A DNA stretch of 64,000 bases from Patescibacteria group bacterium (GTDB lineage Bacteria > Patescibacteriota > Microgenomatia > UBA1400 > UBA12028): positions 4,365 to 68,364 of the forward strand of contig DATIJC010000020.1 in assembly GCA_035479015.1 (NCBI GenBank), given 5' to 3'. The notes below the pieces were generated by a model, which saw only the letters and a program-made list of their open reading frames with translations, searched no databases and was not told the origin of the DNA. Positions 1-53,104 of the stretch are shown piece after piece. How positions within the stretch are numbered: the stretch's first letter is position 1; each line of letters opens with the position of its first letter. The position numbers were made by a program, and so were the translations under genes.

Positions 1-135
1 GTACGGCCTAGATGAGAGCGCCTGTTCTTGAGCTCTGCGCATCTTACTGGCTGCCACCATTTCCATCGCCTTGGTAATCTTGGCGATGTTGGTCGCTGAC
101 TTTATTCTGGATTTAATCAGTCTTGCTTGCGCCAT
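1..135 (-). CDS. atpG: ATP synthase F1 gamma subunit, N-terminal part only (gene runs off window start)
   Basis: Reverse-complement of 1-135 translates from ATG at 135 as [45 protein letters not shown], matching the canonical AtpG N-terminus ([14 protein letters not shown]). Not in the ORF track because it is truncated by the window edge. Confidence 0.8.
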
Positions 136-424
136 CAGAATCTCTCCGAATTGTTTTTGCTAGTATATTGTCAATAACCTCATAGCCAGGCGTTATTACA
201 GATCGAATTCCGCCGTGGTGGGCCGCCCTACTAACTACCTCAATGAGTGTTGCACTCGGTAAGTCAAAATAGTTGTTTCTCTTTGCAAACAGGTACCCTA
301 CATGTAGTAAAACTAATATTGGATCATCCGTGGTCAGACGATCCAGATCAAGCTCTTGCTGTCCTGTTACGACTTCACCATTAATCACCAGTTCAATTTC
401 AAAACTTGTCATACGCCTTGTCAT
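113..424 (-). CDS. hypothetical small protein (103 aa, possibly starting at second Met, codon 5) lying between atpA and atpG
   Basis: Open frame directly downstream of hairpin-doublet element copy 1. It overlaps the atpG start by 23 nt in another frame. No motif recognised. Confidence 0.35.
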
Positions 425-512
425 TCCTGCGTAGGCAGGAATCCAGTCAATAAGTAAAATTCAATAATGTATTATTTGTTGTCTGGATACTTGCCTACGC
501 AAGTATGACATT
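417..512. repeat. two-hairpin TGTCAT...ATGACA element, copy 1 (hairpin attcctgc-GTAG-gcaggaat at 421-444; AT-rich 38-nt spacer; hairpin tacttgc-CTAC-gcaagta at 488-505)
   Basis: Seen directly. The left 26 nt are 25/26 identical to 11274-11299. The overall architecture is shared with 11272-11367 and 61770-61876. Confidence 0.65.
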
Positions 513-513
513 C

Positions 514-2016
514 CTATTCCTGTTCGATCTGTAGATCTTTGTGCAATTCATTGAATTTTTCGATCAAATTTTTCAAATCTTTTTCAATGTCTTCAGTTAA
601 TTTTTGTTCTTTCAAAATCGCGTCATAAACTTTCTTGCCACTTGTATCCATATATTCAAGGAAAAGCTCTTCCCATTTGCCGACATTTTCTTTTTTAACT
701 GTGTCAATGTGGCCACGGGTACCAGCATAAATCACAGCAATCTGCTCGGTGACTTCCATGGGTCTATCCCAAGCTTGTTTCAAAAGTTCGGTGAGCCGTT
801 GTCCCCGGTCAATGCGTGCTTTAGTCTTGGCATCCAAGTCACTGGAGAACTGTGCAAAGGCTTCAAGCTCGCGGAATTGTGCGAGATCTAGTTTCATAGT
901 GCCGGCAACTTGTTTCATTGCTTTGATTTGTGCGCTGCCACCCACACGTGAGACGGAAAGTCCTACGTTAATAGCTGGTTTGATTCCGGCGTTAAATAGG
1001 CCTGATTCCAAATAAATTTGACCATCTGTGATGGAGATGACATTGGTCGGAATGTATGCTGAGACGTCATTTGCCTGTGTCTCGATGATCGGCAATGCGG
1101 TGATGGATCCACCACCATGCTTTTCATCCAAACGGCACGATCTCTCAAGTAGTCGGCTGTGCAAGTAGAAAACATCCCCCGGATACGCTTCGCGGCCAGA
1201 GGGGCGCCGGAGTAGCAGTGAGATCTCACGGTAAGCAACGGCATGTTTAGACAGATCATCGTATACGATCAAAACATCTTTCCCTTTGTCCATGAAATAC
1301 TCAGCGATAGAGGATCCAGCGTAAGGAGCCAAGTACTGCATAGAAGCAGGATCTGATGCACTGGCGTTTAGTACCACGGTGTACTCAGTTGCACCAAAGT
1401 GCTCAAGTTGCGCCATGGTTTGGGCCAGATACGCTTCTTTTTGACCGACGGCGACATATACACAGATGACATTCTTGCCTTTTTGGTTGACGATGGTGGT
1501 GAGAGCAATTGCGGATTTACCGGTACCACGGTCACCAATGATGAGTTCGCGCTGACCACGTCCGATCGGGATCATAGCGTCAACCGCTTTAATACCAGTC
1601 TGAAGTGGCACGGTCACGGATTTACGTGACATGACGCCGGGGGCTATTTTTTCCAACGGTTCCCACTTCTCTATTTCAAAAGCTGGTTTGCCATCGAGAG
1701 TCTTTCCCAATGTATTGACCACACGACCCAGGATTCCATCACCCACACCCACAGACATGATGCGTCCGGTGGTGCGTACGTCCTGGCCGGCAGTAATACC
1801 TTTTCCATCAGCGAGCAGAATAACGCCGATTTCAGTTTTACCTAAGTTGAGCGCCAATCCTTCCTGACCGTTGGAAAATTCGACAATTTCTCCCATCATG
1901 ACATCAGAAAGCCCGGAGACTTTGGCGATTCCGTCACCAAATGTCAGTACTTTGCCAATAGAAACTGGCTTGTTGCTAAACTCAATGGTTGAAATGGAAT
2001 CTAAGAGTGATTTCAT
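514..2016 (-). CDS. atpA: ATP synthase F1 alpha subunit
   Basis: 500 aa with Walker A GDRGTGKS and conserved alpha-subunit blocks along its length. Confidence 0.95.
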
Positions 2017-2018
2017 AA

Positions 2019-2231
2019 TTACAAAAGTTTCTCAATTTGTGACAAGCGTCCGCGCACTGATAAATCAATACGCTCTGATCCGTTTATTGTGACTCGTAGT
2101 CCACCGATCAGATCGTTGTCGACCTTAAAATCAGCAGAAATATCATTGCCAAATTTCTTATTCAAGACTGCAAGGATCTTTTCTTCTTGTTCTTTTTCTA
2201 GTTTTACGGCTGATTCAATTAATATGTTCAT
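2019..2231 (-). CDS. atpH: ATP synthase delta subunit, C-terminal domain fragment (70 aa)
   Basis: ...[37 protein letters not shown] matches the delta C-terminus (compare E. coli VIDGSVRGRLERL). A TGA stop lies in-frame immediately upstream. Confidence 0.7.
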
Positions 2232-2485
2232 AAAACTTCATCTCTTATGCGCCTTGCAAGCACTCTTGCTTGGTCGGTTCCAACCCGGTTTTCTAAAGTG
2301 TACCAATTCTCTATCAGAGGTGTAGCGCACTGCATACCTCGGCGGAAGAAATGTATAAGTGACAGTACTAACGAGACAATTATTCTTTGTTCGCCTGGAT
2401 CTATCGTCACAGATTCCACTCTTCTTCTAACTCGCTGCAGCTCTTCCACTGCATCTCTTGGTCCAATAAATACATCTTGAAGCAT
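2228..2485 (-). CDS. atpH: ATP synthase delta subunit, N-terminal domain fragment (85 aa); its stop overlaps the start of the C-terminal fragment in an ATGA arrangement
   Basis: Position is between atpF and atpA. DAVEELQRV and DPGEQRIIVSLVL resemble the delta N-domain (LDAVEEEL, NPSVSAEEKKALL). Frame is -1 relative to 2019-2231. Confidence 0.5.
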   Translation of the reverse strand: MLQDVFIGPRDAVEELQRVRRRVESVTIDPGEQRIIVSLVLSLIHFFRRGMQCATPLIENWYTLENRVGTDQARVLARRIRDEVL

Positions 2486-2488
2486 ACT

Positions 2489-2980
2489 TTATGCTAATGC
2501 CTTCTCTAGATCCTTTACGGCCGCTTCGACTAATTTGCTCTGTGCTTTTTTGTCAGACAGCTCGCTGCCCAAAATCTTTTCTGCCACAGCAACTGCAGTT
2601 TTACTTACCCGGCTTTCCAGCTCGGCCTTCATGCCGGCAAGTTCTGACTGCCATTTCTCCATCTCATTCTCACGAACTTGCTTCATCTCTTCTTTGACTT
2701 CTTTGGAGAGTTTGACTTTGAGCTGTTTGGCTTCATCACGTGCTACTTCCAAGAATTTGCTCGCCTCTTTCTCAGATTGAGATTTTGCTTTTTTCTTGAG
2801 TGTTTCGATTTCCTCTTTTTCACGGATTGAGACCTCAGCAGCGTGTTGTCCCTCCTCTACTTTGGCTCGTCTGTCATCTAAAACTTTAAGTATTGGCTTG
2901 TAGAGGAATTTAACCAACACAGCGAAGATGACGCCGAAATTAATCACTTGAAAAAGGATTTGTAGTCCATTGATTTCCAT
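2489..2980 (-). CDS. atpF: ATP synthase Fo b subunit
   Basis: 163 aa with an N-terminal TM helix followed by a long charged coiled-coil. Operon position between atpE and atpH. Confidence 0.85.
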   Translation of the reverse strand: MEINGLQILFQVINFGVIFAVLVKFLYKPILKVLDDRRAKVEEGQHAAEVSIREKEEIETLKKKAKSQSEKEASKFLEVARDEAKQLKVKLSKEVKEEMKQVRENEMEKWQSELAGMKAELESRVSKTAVAVAEKILGSELSDKKAQSKLVEAAVKDLEKALA

Positions 2981-2989
2981 AAATATCCT

Positions 2990-3235
<246 letters not shown>

Positions 3236-3997
3236 TTAATGTTCTTCCCCACCATGACCTACAGTAGCCAGGTTGAAAAAGACAAGTGAAAGCATAGCGA
3301 ATACCAGTGCTTGAATGACGCCTACAAACAATTCCAGACCATAAAACGGCATAGGAATAATTACAGGCACAAGGAATGTCATCACAGCAAGCAGCACTTC
3401 TCCGGCGAAAACGTTACCAAATAAACGGAAACCGAACGACATCACCTTTGCTAACTCCAGGATAAACTCCAAGATTCCCACAAATGCGTTCATTGGGTTT
3501 GAAAAATTAAAATATTTTTTTAAATAAGATAGCCCTAGTGCGCTCAGGCCAAAATATTGAGTTACCACGACACTCACAAGTGCGAGCGCAATAGTTGTAT
3601 TAAGGTCTGCGGTGCCCGCCCGCATATACGGAACAAATTCACTTACTCCTTCTTTGATTTCACGGAAACCGATCGCACCAACTCCAGGGAGTAAGCCAAA
3701 CCAGTTATTGAACAAAATGAAAAGGAAGAATGTCGCAATGAGTGGAAAAAAAAGAGCAGTCTTTTGACGACTGCCGGTGATATCGAGCGTTAAGTTGTAG
3801 AGACTCTCAATAATCATTTCCATCATTGCTTGAAAGCGGCTGGGTTTACCCTTTGCTTTCAGTTTCGCATGGACGGTGAGAGCCAAAATGACAAGAAGTA
3901 CGGAAACGACCAGACTAGTAAAGATAGAATTGCTTACAGCAAGCGGACCCACATGGGCAATTGTTTCGGCGGAGATCGAGATATGTAATGCGGACAT
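3236..3997 (-). CDS. atpB: ATP synthase Fo a subunit. The start is probably Met25 of the track ORF (ATG at 3997), because a promoter-like site lies inside the 24-codon upstream extension.
   Basis: GNVFAGEVLL motif, multi-TM protein, first gene of the operon. Confidence 0.85.
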   Translation of the reverse strand: MSALHISISAETIAHVGPLAVSNSIFTSLVVSVLLVILALTVHAKLKAKGKPSRFQAMMEMIIESLYNLTLDITGSRQKTALFFPLIATFFLFILFNNWFGLLPGVGAIGFREIKEGVSEFVPYMRAGTADLNTTIALALVSVVVTQYFGLSALGLSYLKKYFNFSNPMNAFVGILEFILELAKVMSFGFRLFGNVFAGEVLLAVMTFLVPVIIPMPFYGLELFVGVIQALVFAMLSLVFFNLATVGHGGEEH

Positions 3998-4041
3998 ATG
4001 TGACCTGTAAACGCCAGTACTTTTCCGGTGCTTACTGTAGT

Positions 4042-4069
4042 AGTATACCCCTAAATTTTTTAGCCGCAA
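4042..4069 (-). promoter_or_regulatory. candidate sigma70-type promoter for the atp operon (TTGCGG-16nt-TATACT on the minus strand)
   Basis: Seen in sequence: -35 at 4069-4064 and -10 at 4047-4042, about 45 nt upstream of the atpB Met25. Confidence 0.35.
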
Positions 4070-7296: not shown

Positions 7297-7300
7297 CGGA

Positions 7301-7331
7301 AAAAAACAGGGGGTTGCCCCCCTGTTTTCAA
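7301..7331. terminator. bidirectional intrinsic terminator (12-bp stem AAAAACAGGGGG/CCCCCTGTTTTT, loop TTGC) between convergent genes
   Basis: Perfect hairpin with an A-run on one side and a T-run on the other. An identical 27-nt core occurs at 8106-8132. Confidence 0.7.
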
Positions 7332-7349: not shown

Positions 7350-7982
7350 TTAGTCACCTACAGTGAAATAGGCATAGGGAGTATTGCTACTAGCTCGCGA
7401 TGATCTCCATGCAACCGCGTCTGTACTGCCATCTTTAACGATAACAGTCAAGATGCCACTGTTATATGCACAGGCATTGCTAATGCTATCAAGTAGGCTA
7501 AAAGTTGTCCAATCATTTACAGAATCTTCCTGCGTAGACAGAGTCGGATAATCTGTCAGTAGTATTGGATTGCTATTTATTGTTCTAATTGCTGGCATGT
7601 TGTTCCAAGTAACGCCAGTCTCTGTCCATGTTGAAGTTTCACCCAACCAAGCATTGTGTCCACCATCTGAAACTGCATCAACTTTCATGTACATACTGCC
7701 GCCTGGAGTTCCTACATACTGCGTACATGGATTATTTCCATCCGTATCTACTGCGCTTGTCAAATCGAATTTCAGAAGAGAATAATTTTGTTCAGTATCA
7801 TTCTGCGACCAAAGCCGAACTGAGGTACCATAGTTAGTATTTGGATGCGCACTAGACACGTACGTATCGGCAATTGGATATATTGGGCCCACCGATTGGT
7901 CCAATGCCTGTACCAGTCCTGGCGTCATTGCAAATGCAAGCGCAGAAATCGTCGCTGCTATCGAATACTTTTTACCAATCAT
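7350..7982 (-). CDS. secreted protein, DNRLRE/CBM96-like domain, paralog 1
   Basis: Signal peptide. PIADTYVSSAHPNTNYG...LLKFDL...ETSTWTETGVTWNNMP is the hallmark pattern of that family. This is recalled knowledge, not a search result. Confidence 0.6.
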   Translation of the reverse strand: MIGKKYSIAATISALAFAMTPGLVQALDQSVGPIYPIADTYVSSAHPNTNYGTSVRLWSQNDTEQNYSLLKFDLTSAVDTDGNNPCTQYVGTPGGSMYMKVDAVSDGGHNAWLGETSTWTETGVTWNNMPAIRTINSNPILLTDYPTLSTQEDSVNDWTTFSLLDSISNACAYNSGILTVIVKDGSTDAVAWRSSRASSNTPYAYFTVGD

Positions 7983-8102
7983 AGGCCTCCTTCAGGCTAC
8001 GCTTTTCTATTAGAATTTAGTATACGGTCATCTCCGGTTAGCGGGTCAATGCACAGTTCATTTCGTGATGGTATTATTCAGACTGTGTTCAGTTTAGTTA
8101 CC

Positions 8103-8135
8103 AAAAAAAACAGGGGGTTGCCCCCCTGTTTAAGT
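8103..8135 (-). terminator. intrinsic terminator downstream of paralog 2, the same hairpin as 7301-7331 followed by T8 on the minus strand
   Basis: Seen in sequence. Confidence 0.7.
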
Positions 8136-8158
8136 AGTCTACAGAATATAGAAATTTG

Positions 8159-8797
8159 TTAGTTTCCTACGTCAAAATATGCATACGGTTTTTCGCTCGA
8201 TGCATCATTTGACTTCCAGGCTATTGCATTCGCTCCGCCATCCTTGACGATCATGGTCAAAATCCCACTGTTATAGGTACATGCACTAGTAAAATCACCT
8301 GACAGGGCTATGTGAGTCCAGTCATTGACAGAGTCTTCTGATGTGGAGGCAGTCGGATTGTCTGAAAGAAGTACTGGACTACCGTCATTTGAAGGGTAGT
8401 CATAGTTACGCACGGCTGGCATGTTATTGCACGTTACTCCTGATTCAGTCCACGTAGAAGTCTCGCCAAGATACACTTGATGTCCCCCATTCGATACTTC
8501 GTCCACTTTCATAACGAGCTCTCCATCAGAACCACCATTGGTGCAGGGAGTGGCACTAGTTCCAGGTTTAATAACCTGAGTTAGATCAAATTTCAAAATT
8601 GAGTAGTTTTGCTCGGTATCATTTTGTACCCAAAGCCTCGACGAAGTACCATAATTGGTACTGGGGTGCGCGCTCGACACATAGGTTGCCGCAGTTGGAT
8701 ACACTGGCCCTACACTAGTAGCCATCGCTAAACTAGGCACCGCCAAGAATGAAAAGGCAGATACTGTTAGCACACATAGTTTCGTTTTACTGCTCAT
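8159..8797 (-). CDS. secreted protein, DNRLRE/CBM96-like domain, paralog 2 (a tandem duplicate of 7350-7982)
   Basis: Roughly 55-60 percent identical to paralog 1 across its full length. Signal peptide present. Confidence 0.6.
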   Translation of the reverse strand: MSSKTKLCVLTVSAFSFLAVPSLAMATSVGPVYPTAATYVSSAHPSTNYGTSSRLWVQNDTEQNYSILKFDLTQVIKPGTSATPCTNGGSDGELVMKVDEVSNGGHQVYLGETSTWTESGVTCNNMPAVRNYDYPSNDGSPVLLSDNPTASTSEDSVNDWTHIALSGDFTSACTYNSGILTMIVKDGGANAIAWKSNDASSEKPYAYFDVGN

Positions 8798-8882
8798 GCT
8801 CCTCCTTTTAGATTTTCCTAACTTTCAGACTTCAGTATACATTCAGTAATACATAAACTGTCAATACATAAAAAGTTTCGCC

Positions 8883-8906
8883 TAATAAAACAGGGGGTTG
8901 CCCTCT
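8883..8906. repeat. degenerate third copy of the CAGGGGGTTGCCC terminator hairpin
   Basis: ACAGGGGGTTGCCCTCTGA has one stem mismatch. It is probably a remnant of a third duplication unit. Confidence 0.3.
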
Positions 8907-8957
8907 GACAAAATTTAGATTTGACCCGAAGGGGTAGAATTTGCCATACTACACACA

Positions 8958-9317
8958 ATGAATACAGTTTCTCTTGGGCCCGATAACATCATCATGGCGG
9001 CGTATGTCGGTGACCAAACGGAAGATACCATCACCCAAACGTGGAAAGAGACCATCCCAATGGTCAAAGAGTTGCGGGACAAAGGTCTACCCATAAAAGT
9101 TATTCTCGATCTCTCGAAACTTACAGGTCAAAATTCCAGCGCCAGAAGAGCTGCCAGAGATGTGCTGTTGCAGTTAGCTCCAGACAAAATGGCAGTGATC
9201 GGCGCCAATACCTTCATCCGCTACCTTGCAGGATTTATCTTTAAAGCCACCAATATGGAGAAAAATATTAAACAATTTCCTGAAATGAAGGATGCAGCGG
9301 CATGGATAAACTCATAG
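8958..9317 (+). CDS. STAS-like (anti-sigma-antagonist fold) small protein, translationally coupled to the kinase
   Basis: VILDLSKLTGQNSSARRAARDVLLQL fits the STAS pattern loosely. It overlaps the downstream kinase gene by 16 nt. Confidence 0.4.
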   Translation: MNTVSLGPDNIIMAAYVGDQTEDTITQTWKETIPMVKELRDKGLPIKVILDLSKLTGQNSSARRAARDVLLQLAPDKMAVIGANTFIRYLAGFIFKATNMEKNIKQFPEMKDAAAWINS

Positions 9318-10567
9318 AACTGTTAAACCCAATTTTTGCCGATGCTACGGTCGGTGAATTTACCAAGGACGTGGATCTTTCCCAAGTGGAGCCGCAATAT
9401 TTAGAGCTCTGTTCTGGAATACAAATCATCATTGACGTGATCCGGGAAAAAATAGCAGATCTTGAGCGTCTTAATTCTGAATTGCTTCAGGAAAGTGTGG
9501 AGCGGCAAGCAATACTTGATAGCATTGGTGAAGGCGTAGCCGTACTCAATGAACATGGTATTGTGTTATTTTTAAACCCTGTTGGTCAGCAGATTTTGGG
9601 TTGGAGTGCCAGTGAGATCGAAGGAAAGCCATGGGTCACTACAGTACCGCTTGAATATGAAAATGGTACGGAGATAGACACAAGCAAACGTCCGTTTGAA
9701 AGTTTTACCTATAGCCAAGAAGCAGACAATTTGGCACAAGCTCTCTACTATCGGCGCAAAAATAAATCTCGCGTACCCATTCAAACAACAGTTTCTCCAG
9801 TGCTCTCTAATGGGCAAAATCACGGAACGATCATCGTCTTTAGAGACGTCTCAAAAGAATGGGAGATAGAAAAACTAAAAGAGGAATTTCTCTCGATTGC
9901 AGCACATCAATTGCGAGGACCCCTGGCTACCATGCGCTGGACAACGGAGACTCTGCTCTCCACCTATGCATCACTTCTTGACCCCGTGGTACGGGAGAAA
10001 ATTGAGTGGGTATACCACAACAACCAAGATCTCATAGGCCTCGTCAACGATATCTTAAGCATCACCAGACTCTCTAAAGGCACCATAAGCGAAGAAGCAA
10101 TTCCGACAAATGTGCGGTTACTCATAACGAAAGAAATCGATGATCTTTCACATCAAATTAAAAAGAAACATATGAATATCGATCTGCGAACTGACCAAAT
10201 CATCAGCGATGGAAAGTTTGCGCTTGATCCAAACCATTTTAAACAGGTACTGCGTAACATCATTGATAATGCGATAAAGTACGGTTTTAAAGATTCAACC
10301 ATTCAAATTTCTGCAACTTTTGACGGCTCAGGGATAACTATAGTAGTATCTGATCAAGGCATGGGAATTGCACCTAAAGAGAAAACCATGGTTTTTCACC
10401 GGTTCTTTCGTGGTAGCAATGTCATTCATTCTGGGATTAGTGGTACAGGATTGGGGCTCTATGTTGTGAAACAGTACATCGATCTGTGGAAAGGCAGCGT
10501 CAATGTGGAAAGCACGCTGAATAAAGGAACAAGCGTCACCATTCATTTACCCATACATCCGTTATAA
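9302..10567 (+). CDS. sensor histidine kinase with PAS domain (cytoplasmic)
   Basis: PAS block ILDSIGEGVAVLNEHGIVLFLNPVGQQILGW. H-box AAHQLRGPL. N, G1 and G2 boxes IIDNAIKYG, DQGMGI, GTGLGLYVV. Confidence 0.85.
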   Translation: MDKLIELLNPIFADATVGEFTKDVDLSQVEPQYLELCSGIQIIIDVIREKIADLERLNSELLQESVERQAILDSIGEGVAVLNEHGIVLFLNPVGQQILGWSASEIEGKPWVTTVPLEYENGTEIDTSKRPFESFTYSQEADNLAQALYYRRKNKSRVPIQTTVSPVLSNGQNHGTIIVFRDVSKEWEIEKLKEEFLSIAAHQLRGPLATMRWTTETLLSTYASLLDPVVREKIEWVYHNNQDLIGLVNDILSITRLSKGTISEEAIPTNVRLLITKEIDDLSHQIKKKHMNIDLRTDQIISDGKFALDPNHFKQVLRNIIDNAIKYGFKDSTIQISATFDGSGITIVVSDQGMGIAPKEKTMVFHRFFRGSNVIHSGISGTGLGLYVVKQYIDLWKGSVNVESTLNKGTSVTIHLPIHPL

Positions 10568-10575
10568 GGAGGATT

Positions 10576-10941
10576 ATGCAAACAATTCTGATCGTGGAAG
10601 ATGATACACAGACACAGGGGTTATACAAGGAAGCGCTGACACAAGCGGGGTTTGAGACGACAGTTGCTGGCAATATCGCTCAAGCACGGACGATGGTGAA
10701 TGAAAAACCGCCAGATTTAGTGCTTCTGGATATTATGATGCCGGGTGGTGAAAACGGATTTGATTTCCTGGAAACATTACAGAAAGATCCCCACTTCAAA
10801 ACAATACCGGTCATCGTTCTTACAAATCTAGACAGTGAGGAAAAAACCGCAAAAGAGATAGGAGCAAAAGAGTATCTGATTAAGACAAACGTCTCAATAA
10901 ATGAGATTATTGCTGCGGTGAAGCGACATCTAGCTTCTTGA
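10576..10941 (+). CDS. single-domain response regulator (receiver only)
   Basis: ILIVEDD...LVLLDIMMPGGENG...IPVIVLTN...K. Confidence 0.85.
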   Translation: MQTILIVEDDTQTQGLYKEALTQAGFETTVAGNIAQARTMVNEKPPDLVLLDIMMPGGENGFDFLETLQKDPHFKTIPVIVLTNLDSEEKTAKEIGAKEYLIKTNVSINEIIAAVKRHLAS

Positions 10942-11248
10942 TCTTCATGGCATTCTTGCCGGCGCGGCCGCGCATGTAGTACAGTTTGCCACGGCGAACG
11001 TCACCCTTGGTAACTATCGCCAGATCAGCAATAGCCGGACCATCCAGAGGGAGGATGCGTTCGACACCTACACCAGAAGCAATTTTGCGCAGTGTGATGG
11101 CCTTACCGCTCTCACGATTGGAGACGGCGATGACTATGCCCTCGAATGCCTGTTGGCGGGTTTTCTCGCCTTCAGTCACGTTGAGCATCGCCTTAACAGT
11201 GTCTCCCACGGAGTATTCGACGTTTTTATATGTAAAGTACTTGGCCAT
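10907..11248 (-). CDS. rplS: 50S ribosomal protein L19
   Basis: GDTVKAML...QAFEGIVIAVSNR...KLYYMRGRAGK matches L19. Confidence 0.9.
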   Translation of the reverse strand: MAKYFTYKNVEYSVGDTVKAMLNVTEGEKTRQQAFEGIVIAVSNRESGKAITLRKIASGVGVERILPLDGPAIADLAIVTKGDVRRGKLYYMRGRAGKNAMKIKKLDVASPQQ

Positions 11249-11271
11249 AGAGAGGGTATTTTATCACATTC

Positions 11272-11367
11272 ATGTCATTCCTGCGAAGGCAGGAATCCAT
11301 GCAACAAAGAAAATACAAAAATGAGTTATTTATTGACTGGATCCCTGTCTACACAGGGATGACAGAC
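11272..11367. repeat. two-hairpin TGTCAT...ATGACA element, copy 2 (attcctgc-GAAG-gcaggaat at 11277-11296; 37-nt spacer; tccctgt-CTAC-acaggga at 11341-11358)
   Basis: Left hairpin is 25/26 identical to copy 1. The spacer is about 70 percent identical. The right hairpin stem differs from copy 1 by fully compensatory changes. The CTA of the loop is the stop codon of the upstream phosphoribosyltransferase gene (read as TAG on the minus strand). Confidence 0.65.
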
Positions 11368-11927
11368 TTATACCCCAACTTGGCTAGGTTCTCTACAATT
11401 TGAATTTTTGTATCTCCCTTTTTCCCCCAAATATCGGACAAAAGAGTGGTAGTCTCCCTGGTTTCCCAGGGCCAGATTATCCATGCCTTGGATGTGTGGG
11501 AGTAAAAGTCAGGAATGACTTTGGTCCAAGGTTTAATGACTAGGGTCGCCGTCTGAACCTCACTGGCTCCATGAAAGCCCAGATAAGATCTGGCCATGGC
11601 TAGGGTTTCTCCGCTATCGGCAATATCATCAATGATGAGCACTTTCTCTCCGCGGATTGAGATTGGCAGGGACTGGGTGATGACAGGAGTACGGTTGGTC
11701 GTAGCGATCCCAGAGTAAAATTCGATTTGAATCGAACTTAGTTCTTTCATGCCAAGCAGGTCTAGTATGGGTCTGGCTATCGTCGTACCGCCCTTGGCTA
11801 GTGCTATCACACGGTCAAAACTCTCCTTCTTGTCGATTATTTTTACTGCAAGTGTCTCTACACCTTGGCCAAAATCTTCCCAAGAGAATACTTCGTAAGT
11901 TTGATCGTGGATGAGGCTTCTGATCAT
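11349..11927 (-). CDS. purine phosphoribosyltransferase (Gpt/Hpt-like)
   Basis: PRPP loop VLIIDDIADSGETL. The C-terminal block WIIWPWE resembles Gpt WIEQPWD. The last 3 codons are supplied by repeat copy 2. Confidence 0.7.
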   Translation of the reverse strand: MIRSLIHDQTYEVFSWEDFGQGVETLAVKIIDKKESFDRVIALAKGGTTIARPILDLLGMKELSSIQIEFYSGIATTNRTPVITQSLPISIRGEKVLIIDDIADSGETLAMARSYLGFHGASEVQTATLVIKPWTKVIPDFYSHTSKAWIIWPWETRETTTLLSDIWGKKGDTKIQIVENLAKLGYKSVIPV

Positions 11928-13606
11928 TTTCTACATGCCTCTAGGAATGCTAAAAAGATTGCATGGGGTTTGAGGGGGGTCGATTTATACTCAGGGTGGC
12001 CTTGCGTACCTACAAAGAACGGATGCACATTTTTTGGCAACTCTATCAATTCGACTAGATTTTCCTTGACGCTCCGTCCAGAGATGATGACGCCCGCTTG
12101 TTCAAATTGGGGTACGTATGCATCATTAACCTCATATCTATGGCGGTGCCGCTCAGCAGTTAACCCTTTTTTCTCGTCCACCATTTGGTCATACTTTTTG
12201 TAAATTTCAAAAAGCCGCGTACCCGGCTTGACTATGCACTCCCATGTTCCCAGTCGCATAGTTCCACCATATGCCCGGTTTTCCAAAATCCGTTTTTGTT
12301 CTGGAATCATATGAATGACTAAATCAGTAGTTTTTGGATCCACCTCCTGTGTGTGGGCATCCTTGATATTCAACACATTTCGCGCAAATTCCACCATAGC
12401 TAGCTGCATGCCATAGCAAAGACCTAAGTAGGGAATTTTCGCTTCACGGGCATACTGGATACTGCGGATCTTGCCCTCTACGCCGCGTGTGCCCCAACCG
12501 ATCGGTACAATTAAGCCATCCAGGTGTCCAAAGAATGTTGCTAGATCTTTGTTAGAAAGTTTGGAATTATCCTTTTGCAGTTTTTCAATTTTCGAAGCAT
12601 CCACCCAAACAATCTCCGTCTCAGTGTCTTTTGCGTCACTAGCATGATGCAGTGCATCGATAAGCGCAGCGTAGGAATCTTTGAGTTGGTATTCACCTGT
12701 TGCCAGGTACTTGCCGACGATCGCTATGCGGGCGGTGTGTTTTTTCTTCCGCCGCGCAATTTTTACCATATTTTCCCAAGCTTCAAGCCTGAGAGTTTTT
12801 TTGGGTAAAGATAAGTCATCTAAAATCAATTCATCAAAGTGCTGCTCCCGAAACAGGAGTGGGATCTCATATATGTTGGCTACATCCGGGCTCTCAATAA
12901 TATGGTCACTCTGTACATTACAAAACAGCGCAAATCTGTCACGGCGGCGCTGATCCATTCGCTGATCGGCACGTGCCACGATAAAATCGGGCTGGATGCC
13001 TAGGGAATTGAGTGTCTGCACTGAAAGTTGAGTCGGTTTGGTTTTGGGTTCGCCGATGTGAGCTGGCGTCGGTAAATAACTGACATGGATATGGATGACT
13101 TGTTGCTTGTGCGTCAGCCGCAAGACGCGGGCAGTCTCATAGTACAAAATGTTGAGGTACTCCCCCGCCGTACCGCCCAATTCAACTATCACAATTTCGG
13201 CGTTATCTTTTTTGGCTGCAGCATTGATGCGTCCAATGATCTCATCACAAATATGGGGCACTTCCACATCCTCTCCGTCATACCCGAAGGCACGTTCACG
13301 ATCGATGACAGCTTTATAGATCTGACCCATGGTCACGAAATTACTCTTTCCCATCTCTTGACCGAGGAACTTTTCATAGGTCCCGAGGTCCATGTCGGAT
13401 TCGGTGCCATCTTCACACAAAAATGGATCGCCATGTTCAATGGGGTTTATGAGTCCGGAATCAATATTGAGATAGTTTTCACACTTTACGATGGTCACCC
13501 GATAACCACGGGACTTGAGGAGCAGAGCGATAGAGCCAGTAACGATTCCCTTACCAAGGGAAGAAAGCACACCTCCGGAAACAAAGATGTATTTTACTTG
13601 GGGCAT
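11924..13606 (-). CDS. pyrG: CTP synthase
   Basis: N-terminus KYIFVSGGVLSSLGKG, a DPY-like block, and the GATase triad region GLCYGMQ. Confidence 0.95.
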   Translation of the reverse strand: MPQVKYIFVSGGVLSSLGKGIVTGSIALLLKSRGYRVTIVKCENYLNIDSGLINPIEHGDPFLCEDGTESDMDLGTYEKFLGQEMGKSNFVTMGQIYKAVIDRERAFGYDGEDVEVPHICDEIIGRINAAAKKDNAEIVIVELGGTAGEYLNILYYETARVLRLTHKQQVIHIHVSYLPTPAHIGEPKTKPTQLSVQTLNSLGIQPDFIVARADQRMDQRRRDRFALFCNVQSDHIIESPDVANIYEIPLLFREQHFDELILDDLSLPKKTLRLEAWENMVKIARRKKKHTARIAIVGKYLATGEYQLKDSYAALIDALHHASDAKDTETEIVWVDASKIEKLQKDNSKLSNKDLATFFGHLDGLIVPIGWGTRGVEGKIRSIQYAREAKIPYLGLCYGMQLAMVEFARNVLNIKDAHTQEVDPKTTDLVIHMIPEQKRILENRAYGGTMRLGTWECIVKPGTRLFEIYKKYDQMVDEKKGLTAERHRHRYEVNDAYVPQFEQAGVIISGRSVKENLVELIELPKNVHPFFVGTQGHPEYKSTPLKPHAIFLAFLEACRK

Positions 13607-13612
13607 AGGTAA

Positions 13613-16600
13613 TTATACCAATGCTTCGGCCAAAATGCCAGATACCTCATTTTGCGTCTGCTCGTCCCAAGTGATGGTATAGGGCAGGCGCATCGACGTA
13701 TGTGATTCGCCATTGGGGATAAGCACGGTCAATTCATCTTCGCCTGGCCGAGTCTTTAGATATCTTCCGATCTCCTGCAACTTCTCTTTGGGAGTGCCAC
13801 GCGGAATGACAAGCGTGTTGGTTGGCTTATTTGATTCTTGTGGATTAACCGCTTCTGGCTCACGGACTTTATCTACCTGGAGAGAAAATTTTCCCTCACG
13901 AAGTGCTAGCTTGCCCTTCATGATCACTACTTTGTCTACGCCAAGGAAGTCTTTATACACTGTGTAACTTCTTGGAAATATGACAAAGTCAATTGTGCCT
14001 GTGCCATCATCAAGAGTGCCAAAACACATCTCTTCTTGTTTCTGCTTGGTGAGCACTTGCCGCTGAGTCGCTATGAACCCACCCAGAGATACTACCGCCC
14101 CCTCATGCAACTGCTCATCCAAATTTTTGATTTGATGCGTAGACAGTTTGGATACTTCATCCAAGGCATCTGCCATAGGATGCCTGGTGAGATAAAAACC
14201 AAACAACTCTTTTTCAAACGATAACAGTTCTGCCTGAGGGTACTCTTCAATGTTCCGGAACGTATCTTTAGTTTCATGCGCTTGGGCATGTGCTTCACCA
14301 GTAAATAGGCCATCTTGACCCTCAATTGTGTCAGCAACTACGCCTATGCCGCTGCGGATTTCTTCCAACTGCTCCAATATTGATGCCCGTGTGCAAAACG
14401 AATCAAAAGCTCCAATTTTTGCTAAACTCTCCAGCACCTTTTTATTTACTTTTCTCGCATCAGTTCTGCGCAAAAAATCAGTAAATGATGCAAAGGGTCC
14501 ATTTTCCCTAGCAGCTTGAATACTTTCAATTGCAGCTGACCCTACATTTTTGACTGCACCTAAACCAAAGCGTATTGAACTTTCTTCGATACTGAAATCA
14601 TCGCTGGATTTATTAATATCGGGCGGTAGTACTGTGATCCCAAGACGTCTGCACTCACTGATTGCTTGTGAGACCTTCTCTTCCCGATTTGCGCCCATTG
14701 AGTGGCTCTCTACGGAGAGCAGTGCGCACATATACTCAGCAGGGTAGTTGGTCTTCATGTACGCGGTTTGGTAGGCAATCATGGCATAGCCTGCGCTATG
14801 TGCACGGCCAAAACCGTAGCCAGCAAATTTCTCAATAAATCCCCATACCTTCTCGATCGTCTTTTCGTCGTATCCTTTGGCTTTAGCGCCCTTTTTAAAT
14901 TTTTCCTTCTCTACCATCATGATCTCAGTTTTTTTCTTTCCAATGGCACGGCGTAATTCATCCGCTTGGCCCATACTAAAACCTGCCATGACGTTAGCAA
15001 CCTGCAAACACTGCTCTTGGTACAAGAGAACACCGTATGTATCTTTCAGCACCGGCTCCAAATCAATATGTGGGTACTTGATACTCTTGGGATTATTTTT
15101 ACTAGCTACGAAATCATCAATCAGCGCCATAGGACCAGGTCGGTACAGCGCCACCATAGCTGCCAGGTCAGAGAAAACACTGGGCTTGAGTGATCGTGCG
15201 AGTTTTCGCATACCGCCTGATTCCATTTGAAACACACCTGTCGTCTCGCCGCTGGCAATCATTGCATAGACCTTTTTATCATCGATAGGAATACGGGCCA
15301 AGTCCACCACTTCGTCGCGTGTTTCTTTCACTACTCGGATTGATTCTTCTAGGATAGAAAGATTTCGGAGGCCTAAAAAGTCCATCTTCAGTAGTCCGAT
15401 AGCATCAGATGAAACGTTGAGATCCAATACTTTCATGTCATATTGTGTAATAGTCTTACCCGACTTGCTATCTCTTTGAATTGGCGTGTACTCCATGAGT
15501 GGCTTATCGGCAATAATCACACCCGCGGCGTGCACACTTGTGTGCCGTGCGCTGCCTTCCACCTTCATCGCTAGATCGAGGAGCTCTTTGTACTTGGGCT
15601 GCTGATAGTAGATACCGAGTTCAGCCACGCTTGCCAGCGCATCCTTGATATGCACCACATGTCCTTGTACTGGCTCCGGAATAAGTTTGGCCACATGATC
15701 GACTTCCGTATATGACATGCCAAGCACTCTACCGACATCGCGAACAGCGGCCTTGCTCTCCATTCGCCCAAATGTAATGATCTGACCCACTTTGTCCGCT
15801 CCGTATTTTGCCGTCACATAGGCGATCACTTCATCACGGCGCCTATCTGCAAAATCAATATCGATATCAGGGGTGGATTCACGCTCCGGATTCATGAAAC
15901 GCTCAAATGGCAGCGCGTGAACAAGTGGATCAATTGTCGTGATATTTAATGCAAATGAGAGCAGAGATCCGGCGGCAGATCCACGGCCCGGGCCCACGAA
16001 TATGCCTTGAGATTTTGACCAGTTCACAAAATCCTGCACAATCAAAAAGTACGTGAGGTAGCCTTTATCCTCAATCACTTTCATTTCATATTGGAGCCTC
16101 GCCGCCGCTGAAGCGGGATCAAAAATATTGTTAGGATTAGCAGTCGCTTTCTTCTTTTCAAATTCTTTTACGCCGGGATAGATTGAATCCAATCGCTCAA
16201 ACGCAAGCTTGGCGACATAAGATGACACAGTTTCCCCTTCCGGAATATCAAATTTTGGGAAAATCACCCTGCCCAATGGGATTTGCAAATCACACTTATT
16301 GGCAATTTTTACAGTATTCTCTAGAGCGTCCGGGTACTGTCCAAACTCTGCTTCCATTTCTTTGATGGTTTTGAGGTAAAAATCATTGGCTCCCATTTTC
16401 ATGCGATCTGTATCTGAAATAAGCTTACGTGTTTGAATACACAAAAGTGCGTCTTGTGCCCGCGCATCGTCTGGTGAAATGTAGTGAACATCGTTGGTAG
16501 CGACTAAGGGTATTCCTAGTTCTCTGGACAACTTCACCATCTCTTCACGCATGTTTTCAACTTCTAGGATCTCCGGATGTGACTGTATCTCGATATAAAA

Positions 16601-41413: not shown

Positions 41414-41752
41414 TTGAAAGGAAAAAATATGTCGGTTTTTAACATCGAATCCCGTGAGCAATTTATCTCAGAAGTATTCCCTGATGGCGTTCCTGCCCTA
41501 CAATCTAGAGATTACTTAAAAGAGAGTGCAATCGACTGGTCTGTTTCACGTAGCAGGTTGTTGAAGACGGCAATCAGAAATGGCGATGAGGAACAAGCAA
41601 AAACAGTTATTCGTGAGTACGCTGCCATCGTTGGTATAGACAGAGCAATACAAGTATTTCTTGAAATTTGGGGAAACGTGGTCACTGAGAACATGGAAGA
41701 TGAACCAATTGTTGAAGACTTAGATACTGGTTTCCCGCCTGCGCGGGAATGA
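41414..41752 (+). CDS. hypothetical protein (112 aa)
   Basis: ORF only. Overlaps the tsaD 3' end convergently. Confidence 0.35.
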   Translation: MKGKNMSVFNIESREQFISEVFPDGVPALQSRDYLKESAIDWSVSRSRLLKTAIRNGDEEQAKTVIREYAAIVGIDRAIQVFLEIWGNVVTENMEDEPIVEDLDTGFPPARE

Positions 41753-42766
41753 AAGATTCGATTGACGATCTAACGTAGAAAAATCTGTAACAAAGTCGTT
41801 GGCCTGGGCCTGAAAATATGCTGCAACGCCAATCATCGCCGCATTATCTGTATACAGTTTTTGTGAGTAGGGAACTAGCAGGGGAATTTTATGGGTACGA
41901 GCAACCGAACGTAGAGCATGGCGCACTTCCCTATTGGCTCCTACTCCCCCGCCCAAAATAATACTTTTCACCTCTTTATCTTTTAGCGCAAATTCAAGTT
42001 TCTCAATCAGGTGTGTGATCGCAGAAGTTTGGAATCCAAGCGCAATATCTGCTATATCTTGTTGTGTTAGTTTGTCGTATTTTTCAATGATGCGGGAAGC
42101 AGCAGTTTTTAAACCTGAAAAACTCATATTAGCGTCTTTGACTTGTCGCATTGGCACTGGAAAAGGAATTTTTCCAACTATTCCTTTGCGGGCCATCAGC
42201 TCTACTAACCTGCCAGCTGGATATCCTAAGCCCAACATGCGACCGACTTTATCAAAGGCTTCGCCCATCGCATCGTCTTGTGTCTGCCCGACGATTTCAT
42301 ACTCCCCAATTGCTTTGGCATACACAAACTCGGTATGACCTCCCGATACCAATACGGCCAATGCTGGAAATTGATCAGCCCATGGCTGACCCGCCTTGGG
42401 CGGGTTTGCAAGAAACGAAAGCAAATGTCCTTCCATATGGTTAACTGCAATCAACGGCTTGTTGTATTTAGTCGCAAGCTCTTTTGCATATGCGATACCA
42501 ATCTCTAATGCTATCGCGAGTCCAGGACCGACCGTCACGGCGATTGCGTCAAGATCGCTAAGATTTACTTTTGCTTTTTTCAATGCTTGCTCTACAACCG
42601 TCGGCAAATTTTGTTCATGCGACAAGCGGGCTAGTCTTGGCACAACACCACCATAAATCTGTAAATCAGAAACCTCGCTAAAACGTATATTTGAACGAAT
42701 AGCTAAGTTTTCGATTACTGCGGCTGCAGTATCATCAAATGAGGTGTCGACAGATAAAATAATCAT
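41720..42766 (-). CDS. tsaD: tRNA N6-adenosine threonylcarbamoyltransferase
   Basis: HMEGHLL ... LVSGGHTEF. Carries an extra NPPKAGQPWAD insert encoded by the 30-nt repeat. Confidence 0.95.
   Translation of the reverse strand: MIILSVDTSFDDTAAAVIENLAIRSNIRFSEVSDLQIYGGVVPRLARLSHEQNLPTVVEQALKKAKVNLSDLDAIAVTVGPGLAIALEIGIAYAKELATKYNKPLIAVNHMEGHLLSFLANPPKAGQPWADQFPALAVLVSGGHTEFVYAKAIGEYEIVGQTQDDAMGEAFDKVGRMLGLGYPAGRLVELMARKGIVGKIPFPVPMRQVKDANMSFSGLKTAASRIIEKYDKLTQQDIADIALGFQTSAITHLIEKLEFALKDKEVKSIILGGGVGANREVRHALRSVARTHKIPLLVPYSQKLYTDNAAMIGVAAYFQAQANDFVTDFSTLDRQSNLSFPRRRETSI
42377..42407. repeat. 30-nt GC-rich palindromic repeat, copy 1, inside tsaD (encodes KAGQPWAD)
   Basis: 28/30 identical to 42779-42809. 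Contains CCCGCC-N3-GGCGGG. Confidence 0.7.
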
Positions 42767-42774
42767 GTTTGTAG

Positions 42775-43851
42775 TTAGTCAGCCCAAGGCTGACCCGCCA
42801 TGGGCGGGTAATTAATTGTAATTTTACGTGAGAACTCCCCAGTGTCTTCTAGGGAAATCCAAATAATCTTTGCTCCTCTACAGAGTTTTTCCAATTCTAT
42901 GGCAAATCGGTCTGCCCACTCTATGGCCAGCACGCAGTTGTTTTCAATATATTTTTTGATACCAATCAGCTCCAGTTCCTTTGCTTCGCTCATCCTCCAT
43001 GTATCGATATGCACGAACAAACTTGGCCGTGACTCGCTCTCAAATCTATACTCACTTGCCATCGTGTAGGTAGGACTAACAACTGGATCCCCTATGGATA
43101 GACCTGCAGCTAAGCCCTTCACAAAGTGCGTCTTCCCAGCCCCCATCTCACCCGTGAGCGCAAAAACGATTGGGGTATATGTATAAAAGGATCGGTACTG
43201 CGTTGCCAAACTTTGCGCCGCAGCAACCGTCTCCTGTACTGAATCCGTTTCAATAATTTGTTTTTTGGCAAACTGGATTTGACCCATTCGCTGTACTTTT
43301 ATGTCATCCAAAGTTGTATCAATTACTGTAGACGGTTCATTGTGCGGCAATTCTCCTGCGTCCAAAACGAGATCAATGAGATCCTTTTGTGATCGTGAAA
43401 TTGCCGTGAAAATATCGCTAATAGTGTACGGGCGCTTTTGATTGGAGGCATTAGCCCCGGTAGCAGTTATTCCGTGTCCAAATTTAGAAATAATCTCTAA
43501 AATTAGTGGGTACTTAGGGATACGGATCCCCAGCGTACCACCAGTAATTTTGTGTGAAACTACGGTCACCGGACCTGGTAAAAACGTCTGGTAGACATTG
43601 AGTGCAGTATCATTGAGCTCCACATACTTTTGGGCCATCCGGACATCGGATACAGCCACAGAAATTGGTTTATTATTGCGCTTCCCTTTATAGTCCAAGA
43701 GTCTTTGCATCGCGGCTGGATTTTCACAATCCGCCCCTATGCCATAGGTAGTTTCGGTGGGGTACACTACAAGACCGCCAGCTTGTAATACAGCTACGAT
43801 TTTCTTAATCACTTCTTCTTTTGAGATTTTTCCCAGGTCCAGTATTTCCAT
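42775..43851 (-). CDS. tsaC: fused L-threonylcarbamoyladenylate synthase (TsaC/YrdC domain) and TsaE (YjeE P-loop) protein
   Basis: N-terminal half VVYPTETTYGIGAD is a YrdC domain. C-terminal half LTGEMGAGKTHFVKG...SPTYTM...HIDTWR is TsaE. The C-terminus ...MAGQPWAD comes from the repeat. Confidence 0.8.
   Translation of the reverse strand: MEILDLGKISKEEVIKKIVAVLQAGGLVVYPTETTYGIGADCENPAAMQRLLDYKGKRNNKPISVAVSDVRMAQKYVELNDTALNVYQTFLPGPVTVVSHKITGGTLGIRIPKYPLILEIISKFGHGITATGANASNQKRPYTISDIFTAISRSQKDLIDLVLDAGELPHNEPSTVIDTTLDDIKVQRMGQIQFAKKQIIETDSVQETVAAAQSLATQYRSFYTYTPIVFALTGEMGAGKTHFVKGLAAGLSIGDPVVSPTYTMASEYRFESESRPSLFVHIDTWRMSEAKELELIGIKKYIENNCVLAIEWADRFAIELEKLCRGAKIIWISLEDTGEFSRKITINYPPMAGQPWAD
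42779..42809. repeat. 30-nt GC-rich palindromic repeat, copy 2, forming the last 8 codons and stop region of tsaC/tsaE
   Basis: Seen directly. Confidence 0.7.
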
Positions 43852-52744: not shown

Positions 52745-52769
52745 TTGTCCCCGCGTAGGCGGGGATCCA
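52745..52769. repeat. left-type hairpin (TTGTC-ccccgc-GTAG-gcgggg-ATCCA) between GIY-YIG stop and ileS start
   Basis: Flanks TTGTC...ATCCA and loop GTAG match the left hairpins of the doublet elements. Confidence 0.55.
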
Positions 52770-52780
52770 CGTATTGATAG

Positions 52781-53071
52781 TTAGAATAAACTTAAATCTA
52801 TCCACTTAGGATTCATTTCCCAGATTCTTCTCAATTTCCATGCTCTATTCCATTTTTTCATTTGTTTTTCTTTAATCCTTGCTTCTCTTAAACTCCCGGT
52901 TTGTTCAAACCATACTAAAATATGAGTTTCATACTTTTTAGTAAAATTAGAGTTGTTATGCTTATGCTGATATATTCTTCTGTTCAAATCCTTTGTACTA
53001 CCAATATAGAGCGTTCCACATTTTTTATTTGCGAGCATGTAAACATATCCATATTCTTTTTCATCAACCAT
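52781..53071 (-). CDS. small GIY-YIG nuclease (UPF0213-like, 97 aa, start at MVDEKEYGYVYML)
   Basis: GYVYMLANKKCGTLYIGSTKDLNRRIYQH is a canonical GIY-YIG motif. The upstream 14 codons of the track ORF run through a hairpin and a terminator, so Met15 is preferred. Confidence 0.75.
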   Translation of the reverse strand: MVDEKEYGYVYMLANKKCGTLYIGSTKDLNRRIYQHKHNNSNFTKKYETHILVWFEQTGSLREARIKEKQMKKWNRAWKLRRIWEMNPKWIDLSLF

Positions 53072-53072
53072 A

Positions 53073-53104
53073 CTGGACCCCCGCCTTCGCGGGGGTGGAC
53101 ATAA
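53073..53104. repeat. right-type hairpin (CTGGA-cccccgc-CTTC-gcggggg-TGGACAT) 2 nt upstream of the GIY-YIG start
   Basis: Flanks CTGGA...TGGACA and the CTWC loop match the right hairpins of the doublet elements. Confidence 0.55.

Follow-up and report, generated by a model that had tools for sequence, protein, structure and literature searches.

Results

The DNA under study - 64 kb of contig DATIJC010000020.1 from a Patescibacteria metagenome-assembled genome (MAG), hereafter the window - carries two short intergenic elements, each made of two inverted hairpin units, and a gene (ssn) for a small GIY-YIG nuclease that is flanked by units of the same kind. The window matches positions 234174-298173 of contig CAZNEY010000002.1 (MAG GCA_964572785.1), and about 84 kb of that contig, roughly 20 kb of flanks included, were examined. 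Copy 1 (419..510) lies between the atpA stop codon (514-516) and the small open reading frame (ORF) preceding atpG, beginning 4 nt past the atpA stop and ending 6 nt short of this 99-amino-acid (aa) ORF. Copy 2 (11273..11364) lies between a phosphoribosyltransferase gene (prt), whose end it overlaps, and rplS, 25 nt short of which it stops. All of these genes are on the minus strand, and the gene context of both copies is as a preliminary description, made from the sequence alone, had given it.

That description had also seen that both elements follow one architecture, which we can now define more closely. Each is 92 nt long rather than about 96, is bounded by TGTCAT...ATGACA and holds an AT-rich spacer of 38 nt between two 28-nt units in inverted orientation; from outside to inside, a unit has a TGTC tag, an 8-bp stem beginning with AT, a 4-nt loop (GTAG or GAAG) and a CCA(G/T) tail. 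In copy 1, the left unit (419..446, plus strand) reads TGTC-ATTCCTGC-GTAG-GCAGGAAT-CCAG and the right unit (483..510, minus-strand reading) TGTC-ATACTTGC-GTAG-GCAAGTAT-CCAG, with the spacer at 447..482. In copy 2, the left unit (11273..11300, plus strand) is TGTC-ATTCCTGC-GAAG-GCAGGAAT-CCAT and the right one (11337..11364, minus strand) TGTC-ATCCCTGT-GTAG-ACAGGGAT-CCAG. A covariance model of the unit, run unfiltered on the window, scores these four at 40-48 bits with E 2e-10 to 2e-8: 47.3 (E 2.5e-10) and 40.0 bits for the left and right units of copy 1, and 47.7 and 44.4 bits for those of copy 2. The unit occurs in none of 50 shuffled windows, and a chance origin of the elements is excluded.

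Compared with each other, the two copies make up the longest direct repeat that a repeat search of the window returns (78% identity over 102 nt), and the same search shows the two ends of each element to be mutual inverted repeats. The left units, found nearly identical before, agree at 26 of 27 positions, the loop being GTAG in copy 1 and GAAG in copy 2. The spacers (446-483 in copy 1, 38 nt) are 27/38 or 71% identical, close to the earlier estimate of about 70%, and the spacer of copy 1 is homologous to those of two further copies in the contig. For the right units, the earlier account holds in that flanks and CTAC loop are kept and every stem change is compensated, but "completely different" stems overstated the case, as 3 of 8 base pairs differ. 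What had been overlooked is that left and right hairpins belong to one unit type, the right one being inverted, and because of this the element has terminal inverted repeats and can also fold as one long hairpin. Both foldings - two local hairpins or one long one - are available to the elements, with z-scores of -6 to -10. At the left end of copy 1, the 8-mer CTTGTCAT is seen twice, 12 nt apart (405-412 and 417-424), the second occurrence being the left end of the element itself, and this repeat gives the small ORF preceding atpG two in-frame ATG codons (412, 424). The tag region of the element may have been partly duplicated here, or the pair may be due to chance.

The covariance model of the unit, scanned over the contig, found further units. 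In the window, three weaker ones came up beyond the four doublet units, two of which flank ssn (see below). The third is a degenerate single unit (41727..41754, minus strand; 24.9 bits, E 2.8e-4) with tag TTTC and loop GCAG, which encodes the last codons of tsaD (41720-42766, minus strand; ...SFPRRRETSI*), so that tsaD is another gene end remodelled by the repeat. Outside the window, a full doublet lies between murC and murB, ~3 kb past its right end (locus L134, 6085-6175), and a half element - one unit plus homologous spacer - follows atpG on the left (locus L001, 12757-12784). This brings the tally for about 84 kb to three doublets, one half element, one singlet and two cassette units; the murC-murB doublet, the atpG half element and the tsaD singlet are all at gene 3' ends.

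A gene end is altered at copy 2 as well. The phosphoribosyltransferase ends in V-I-P-V-stop, all encoded by copy 2 - the stop as first described, yet with four preceding codons rather than three - and it is without about 8 C-terminal residues that 14 homologues have; the nearest phosphoribosyltransferase (62% identity) belongs to a Candidatus Cerribacteria genome. In three relatives with pyrG, prt and rplS in the same order, units are absent from this site and from the rest of 47 kb. Together with the additional copies in the same contig, these empty sites and the shortened prt C-terminus bear out the earlier proposal of a dispersed, inserted element. Just before rplS, and assigned to the copy 2 right unit, a -35-like TTCGCA stands 18 nt upstream of TG-n-TAAAAT (window 11258-11287, minus strand), and relatives carry TGGTATAAT at the matching position; it is possible that the rplS promoter received a new -35 region when copy 2 inserted.

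Some further observations concern the surroundings of the copies. The ATP synthase operon (113-4069 in the window; 8020-15181 in locus L001) has extra small ORFs without a Pfam match, of 85 aa before a 70-aa OSCP fragment, of 99 aa before atpG and of 90 aa after atpG, as well as an RNHCP-domain ORF between atpD and atpC. Repeat units are found at two of the small-ORF junctions, atpA|99-aa ORF and atpG|90-aa ORF. Short-read Logan assemblies from the same population (runs SRR9179560-63; loci L002-L004, L128-L130, L132-L133 and L135) all end within elements, at copy 2 exactly at the inner edge of each unit; such breaks could reflect a multi-copy repeat or assembly failure at palindromes and are not counted as evidence here.

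The gene between the two remaining units, ssn (52781..53071, minus strand; Pfam GIY-YIG 1.1e-14), encodes a 96-aa single-domain GIY-YIG nuclease homologous to SsnA of Neisseria. With the 94-aa SsnA homologue of N. gonorrhoeae it shares 52% identity (E 8e-29), and its residues Y11, Y22 and E68 align with Y6, Y17 and E64 of the meningococcal enzyme, so the catalytic residues are kept. NCBIfam holds no specific model for the 96-aa protein, and membership in YhbQ/UPF0213 is not supported, the match to the UPF0213 structure 1zg2 reaching only E 0.13. On the 3' side of ssn there is a degenerate unit with a 3-nt deletion in its 5' arm (52747..52769, plus strand; 23.4 bits) and on the 5' side a unit with a 1-nt insertion and the stem ACCCCCGC (53073..53101, minus strand; 33.9 bits, E 1e-6), whose tail ends 1-2 nt ahead of the ssn start codon. 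The tags of both point outward. Since our ORF clustering used a threshold of 100 aa, it missed this 96-aa gene, which was exposed only by the covariance-model scan.

Such unit-ssn-unit cassettes are not confined to this contig. Among 80 metagenomic loci with Ssn relatives, outward-facing units lie within 150 nt on both sides of the gene in 36 and on at least one side in 65, with median unit-gene gaps of 30 and 26 nt; these fractions match the published 42% and 71% (Chenal et al. 2025, PMC11893778). One doublet locus (L046) holds the same cassette, whose inner flanks are similar to the ends of doublet spacers on that contig. A test for extended inverted repeats at spacer ends and cassette inner flanks gave a weak signal, with 3.5 and 3.2 of 8 positions compared to about 2.4-2.5 in controls. 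Gonococcal loci of ssnA and of the REP-associated tyrosine transposase (RAYT) were taken from an N. gonorrhoeae chromosome filed in a plasmid collection (L217, L218; NZ_CP119140.1), where two complete 2.17-Mb chromosomes of this species are filed as plasmids. Gonococcal ssnA sits inside an array of 16 units, and two units are near the gonococcal RAYT. Another ssn homologue, on metagenome contig Ga0105359_10001323 (L211), lies in a tandem array of at least 12 units of the same orientation, ~140-160 nt apart, which are thus head-to-tail, unlike the doublets.

To what extent the doublet is found elsewhere was addressed by an architecture scan with one genome per species, using the bare doublet pattern and leaving six stem positions per unit free. 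It returned at least 118 loci from many phyla. Hosts among the loci listed include Patescibacteria, Alpha-, Beta- and Gammaproteobacteria (with Legionella, Coxiellaceae, Francisellaceae and Rickettsiales), Chloroflexi, Bacteroidetes, Vampirovibrionales, Smithella, Candidatus Hatepunaea, Candidatus Electryonea and others, and 15 of the 84 listed are labelled as Patescibacteria, or candidate-phyla-radiation bacteria. The commonest unit across the doublet loci fetched is TGTCATTCCCGCGAAGGCGGGAATCCAG; a literal search of a paper library for this sequence gave no match. At seven Candidatus Hatepunaea loci (L006, L008, L013, L017, L098, L103, L104) and at L092, the 12-nt stretches that flank the doublet are reverse complements of each other, e.g. 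tacttcccattt ... aaatgggaagta, so that there the doublet is the core of a longer palindromic element.

Consistent with structural constraint, all six free positions are Watson-Crick paired in 199 of 228 units (114 unique doublets), and in the 69 doublets with unlike partners, 191 of the 210 positions that differ between partners are still paired inside their own unit; about half of the mismatches (14/32) are G.T. For 70 distinct doublets, folding as two local hairpins leaves 98.0% of cells paired, with a covariation of 0.367 versus 0.114 when shuffled (0 of 500 shuffles reach it) and changes on both sides in 10 of 16 pairs. One long hairpin, by comparison, has 92.1% of cells paired and a covariation of 0.116, and up to 30 of 70 cells are unpaired at its variable columns. 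With no strong covariation behind it, the single long hairpin was rejected as the conserved structure. Across doublets in general it is the local hairpin that is the conserved object, and the compensatory stem changes from which structural constraint was first argued on the two window copies are a general property of the 70. Visual inspection found no direct repeats in the flanks of 125 copies, hence no target-site duplication, and a DDE-type MITE was rejected because terminal inverted repeats are present but such a duplication is not.

Two other repeats occur in the window. A different 31-nt double hairpin (TCAGCC-CANG-GCTGA then CCCGCC-NTG-GGCGGG) is found twice, 404 nt apart, with one copy within tsaD and the other at the end of the upstream Sua5/TsaE gene (42375-42405 and 42779-42809); none is expected by chance, and it could be a second small repeat family. 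In addition, the terminator-like hairpin AAAAAAACAGGGGGTTGCCCCCCTGTTT occurs three times (7300-7327, 8104-8131, 8884-8911) beside two tandem CBM96-domain paralogues (7350-7982, 8159-8797), which also have a 98-nt stretch in common (70% identity); this indicates local tandem duplication.

Discussion

Our finding that the elements are built from oriented, tagged hairpins places them in a repeat family that the preliminary description had not recognised; it has been described since 2000/2013, and its partner enzyme since 2025. In their account of CGTC-tagged repetitive extragenic palindromes (REPs), Di Nocera, De Gregorio and Rocco (2013, PMC3733652) define CGTC-1 by a stem of 8 bp that starts with AT, a loop of 4 nt and the tail CCA; TGTC and CCTC are allowed in place of the CGTC tag, TGTC being frequent. 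CGTC-1 repeats form mostly HH dimers, with the tags outside and a 20-100 bp spacer, include heterodimers with unlike stems and lie near the 3' end of the upstream ORF, sometimes overlapping coding ends (PMC3733652). As far as that text describes them, all of these features recur here: the tag is TGTC in the four doublet units, 8 of 8 stem pairs are Watson-Crick, stems start with AT, loops are GTAG or GAAG and tails CCA. At the level of the dimer, tags point outward, spacers are 38 nt, partner stems are unlike, the contig holds multiple copies and these sit at gene 3' ends. Copies 1 and 2 are thus HH (tags-outward) heterodimers of CGTC-1/NTS-like units. They differ from CGTC-1 as reported there in their Patescibacteria MAG host and in their stems (TCCTGC, ACTTGC, CCCTGT), which are more AT-rich than the common CCCGCG. 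The same authors equate CGTC-1 with dRS3 of Neisseria and RPE-6 of Rickettsia, report CGTC repeats from five phyla, mostly Alphaproteobacteria, and state that they "apparently lack a dedicated transposase" (PMC3733652).

A second line of work gives such repeats an enzyme. Chenal et al. (2025, PMC11893778) use the name NTS (CGTCATTCCCGCGMAVGCGGGAATCYRG) for the oriented repeat and Ssn-related motifs (SRM) in a wider sense. According to their main text, the 94-aa GIY-YIG protein SsnA requires single-stranded DNA to bind the hairpin and cuts on its 5' side, at a distance of a few nucleotides; double-stranded DNA, RNA and the reverse strand are not substrates. Ssn reads both sequence and shape, notably GTC before the palindrome and C after it, and its activity was demonstrated for three Neisseria species and Wolbachia. 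Transformation of N. meningitidis with DNA that bears NTS is reduced by the system, which in Neisseria restricts incoming transforming single-stranded DNA; many ssn genes are flanked by the motif, in the proportions quoted above, and the authors note this IS-like layout, the mobility of which was not tested there (PMC11893778). Measured against that description, all four doublet units in our window have GTC directly before and C directly after the palindrome, and the contig has a ~94-aa class single-domain GIY-YIG gene flanked by inverted units. Patescibacteria are not mentioned in the main text of that paper.

Other described repeats resemble the elements in part. Like dRS3/NIME, in which a palindromic 20-mer core flanks AT-richer spacers of 50-150 bp (Parkhill 2000; Bentley 2007, PMC1797815), they have a palindromic core on either side of an AT-richer spacer. 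Unlike dRS3, they do not show the strict core ATTCCC-N8-GGGAAT (ATTCCT... being found instead; window cores ATTCCTGC..., ATACTTGC... and ATCCCTGT...), and unlike the long NIME arrays of Neisseria, the doublets here are isolated. With the REPINs of Bertels and Rainey they have in common an inverted REP doublet of ~90 nt that is capable of forming a long hairpin, and the REPIN seed in Neisseria belongs to the same repeat family; they differ from a REPIN-RAYT system in that no RAYT was found in about 84 kb and in that local hairpins, rather than the long hairpin, are conserved. In Rfam, WsnRNA46 of Wolbachia (RF02625) also has a doublet consensus, with ends TGTCAT...GGATCCAG / CTGGAT...ATGACA, but its units are longer and our elements score 27.9 bits, below the gathering score of 65.3. 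At gathering thresholds, Rfam finds only tRNAs in the window and no family at the elements; permissive matches there were look-alikes of miRNA hairpins and the sub-threshold WsnRNA46, and were rejected. The Coxiella elements QMITE1/QMITE2 were also rejected, for their other size, their direct repeats and their GTAG REP.

Taken together, we are confident, short of certainty, that each element is an HH heterodimer of CGTC-1-type REPs (dRS3/NTS in Neisseria, SRM elsewhere). Most likely the elements are single-strand DNA hairpins recognised by an Ssn nuclease and spread as a dispersed repeat, and we infer that it is the organism's own Ssn which recognises these doublets. Both the repeat family and the partner nuclease encoded nearby are already described; what is new is a member in a Patescibacteria genome, not the kind of element. 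In single-stranded DNA, a unit in forward orientation would fold into a hairpin, to which the ~94-aa Ssn would bind; the enzyme would then cut this strand on the 5' side of the tag, at a distance of a few nucleotides. As each strand of a doublet carries one forward unit, cuts are predicted just outside the doublet on either strand. The doublets, which probably are short gene-less relatives of the unit-ssn-unit cassette, would owe their place at the 3' ends of atpA, prt, atpG and murC to dispersal of the repeat, and any influence on mRNA or the rplS promoter would be of secondary importance.

Several of our data weigh against this view. The doublet stems (TCCTGC, ACTTGC, CCCTGT) differ from the GC-rich stems that flank the window ssn (CCCCGC), and a change of stem sequence abolished SsnA activity even though the hairpin was kept (PMC11893778); because the stems differ and their sequence is reported to matter for SsnA, recognition of the doublets by the window Ssn is not certain. 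The published SRM string HGTCWYN(0-2)YYVSBRHN(0-5)WNVSBRGN(0-2)RNCYNB has 0 matches in the window (shuffle mean 0.2), which we attribute to stem position 6, where the units have T.A (CCTGCG) and the V/B symbols admit only C, G or A, or, for the cassette units, to their indels. Similarity between the inner flanks of cassettes and doublets is weak overall, and the signs of mobility come solely from comparison with distant relatives (about 60% protein identity).

A step further would be that gene-less doublets are non-autonomous derivatives of the cassette, copied by the Ssn GIY-YIG nuclease itself via a single-strand DNA route. We regard this as possible but doubtful. Bearing on it, indirectly, are the unit orientation that doublets and cassettes share, the spacer ends at L046 that match cassette inner flanks, and the position of doublets at gene 3' ends without target duplications.

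An unlikely alternative, to our minds, is that the doublets are REPINs copied by a single-copy RAYT, with Ssn only using or restraining the repeats. Bertels and Rainey class the Neisseria doublets that are based on ATTCCCGCGCAGGCGGGAATC among the REPINs and connect them with a Group 2 RAYT; our elements likewise consist of two inverted REPs less than 130 bp apart, one doublet in N. gonorrhoeae lies 140-240 nt upstream of a Group 2 RAYT homologue, and the lack of target-site duplications is as expected for HUH/Y1 enzymes. Yet a tblastn search with E. coli RayT was negative for the window, for its flanks (roughly 20 kb) and for all 118 doublet loci fetched, and Di Nocera et al. state for CGTC units that no species has a tyrosine transposase gene flanked by them (PMC3733652). 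The gonococcal layout, too, favours Ssn, with ssnA within the 16-unit array as opposed to two units near RAYT. Moreover, Ssn homologues occur in the plasmid collection in Sinorhizobium, Azospirillum and Novosphingobium, which are among the CGTC hosts that Di Nocera et al. name, and in the related Rhizobium and Sphingobium, whereas RAYT matches in that collection, Neisseria apart, are not in those CGTC-host genera. Still less probable is a role of the repeats as attachment or target sites for an IS110/Piv-type recombinase. It has been published for dRS3, which serves Neisseria filamentous prophages in this way, but would account for the use of sites rather than their origin; none of the window units is interrupted by an element, and all-against-all clustering of ORFs of at least 100 aa over the 118 doublet loci gave no recurrent partner family, the clusters being unannotated. 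We rate this role as highly improbable.

The preliminary description had left the choice between a functional RNA and a protein-recognised DNA hairpin. Published and local evidence favour the latter in its single-strand form, and the former is without direct support. That the elements act mainly as RNA - as a 3'-end stabiliser, processing site or terminator in operon transcripts, or as a small RNA - would fit with the location of all doublets directly behind stop codons of co-directional genes, with their very stable predicted folds, with the transcription of REPs that Di Nocera et al. favour (PMC3733652) and with the closest Rfam family, WsnRNA46, being a Wolbachia small RNA with a doublet consensus. 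However, neither copy has a T-run or terminator-like site, that is, the GC-rich hairpin plus T-run of an intrinsic terminator is lacking, and termination at copy 1 would be harmful as this copy lies inside the ATP synthase operon. The covariation fits single-stranded DNA equally well, and the G.T mismatches among stem pairs can be produced by single transitions alone. Since, in addition, no Rfam family reaches threshold and Ssn is reported not to bind RNA (PMC11893778), we consider a primary function as RNA quite unlikely and return to Ssn sites in single-stranded DNA as the reading we prefer.

Conclusions

Our data show that a reduced Patescibacteria genome harbours the CGTC-1/NTS family along with an ssn cassette, and we found no mention of such hosts in the two defining papers. 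As AT-shifted stems fall outside the published string, counts based on the SRM string will miss such genomes. Our findings also bear on how the family is viewed, because the literatures on CGTC REPs, on REPIN-RAYT and on NTS-Ssn deal with one repeat without referring to each other and have not been reconciled, the first seeing no dedicated transposase, the second RAYT and the third Ssn. Those on RAYT and Ssn do not cite each other on the same Neisseria repeat, and the main text of the 2025 Ssn paper has no 'RAYT' or 'REPIN', and 'CGTC' only within sequence strings (PMC11893778). If copying by Ssn were true, it would amount to a transposable element that relies on a GIY-YIG enzyme in place of a DDE, HUH/Y1 or serine/tyrosine recombinase, and would answer the question raised by Di Nocera et al. 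of why there are CGTC repeats without a dedicated transposase. Which enzyme the repeats travel with could be settled in small complete genomes of this kind.

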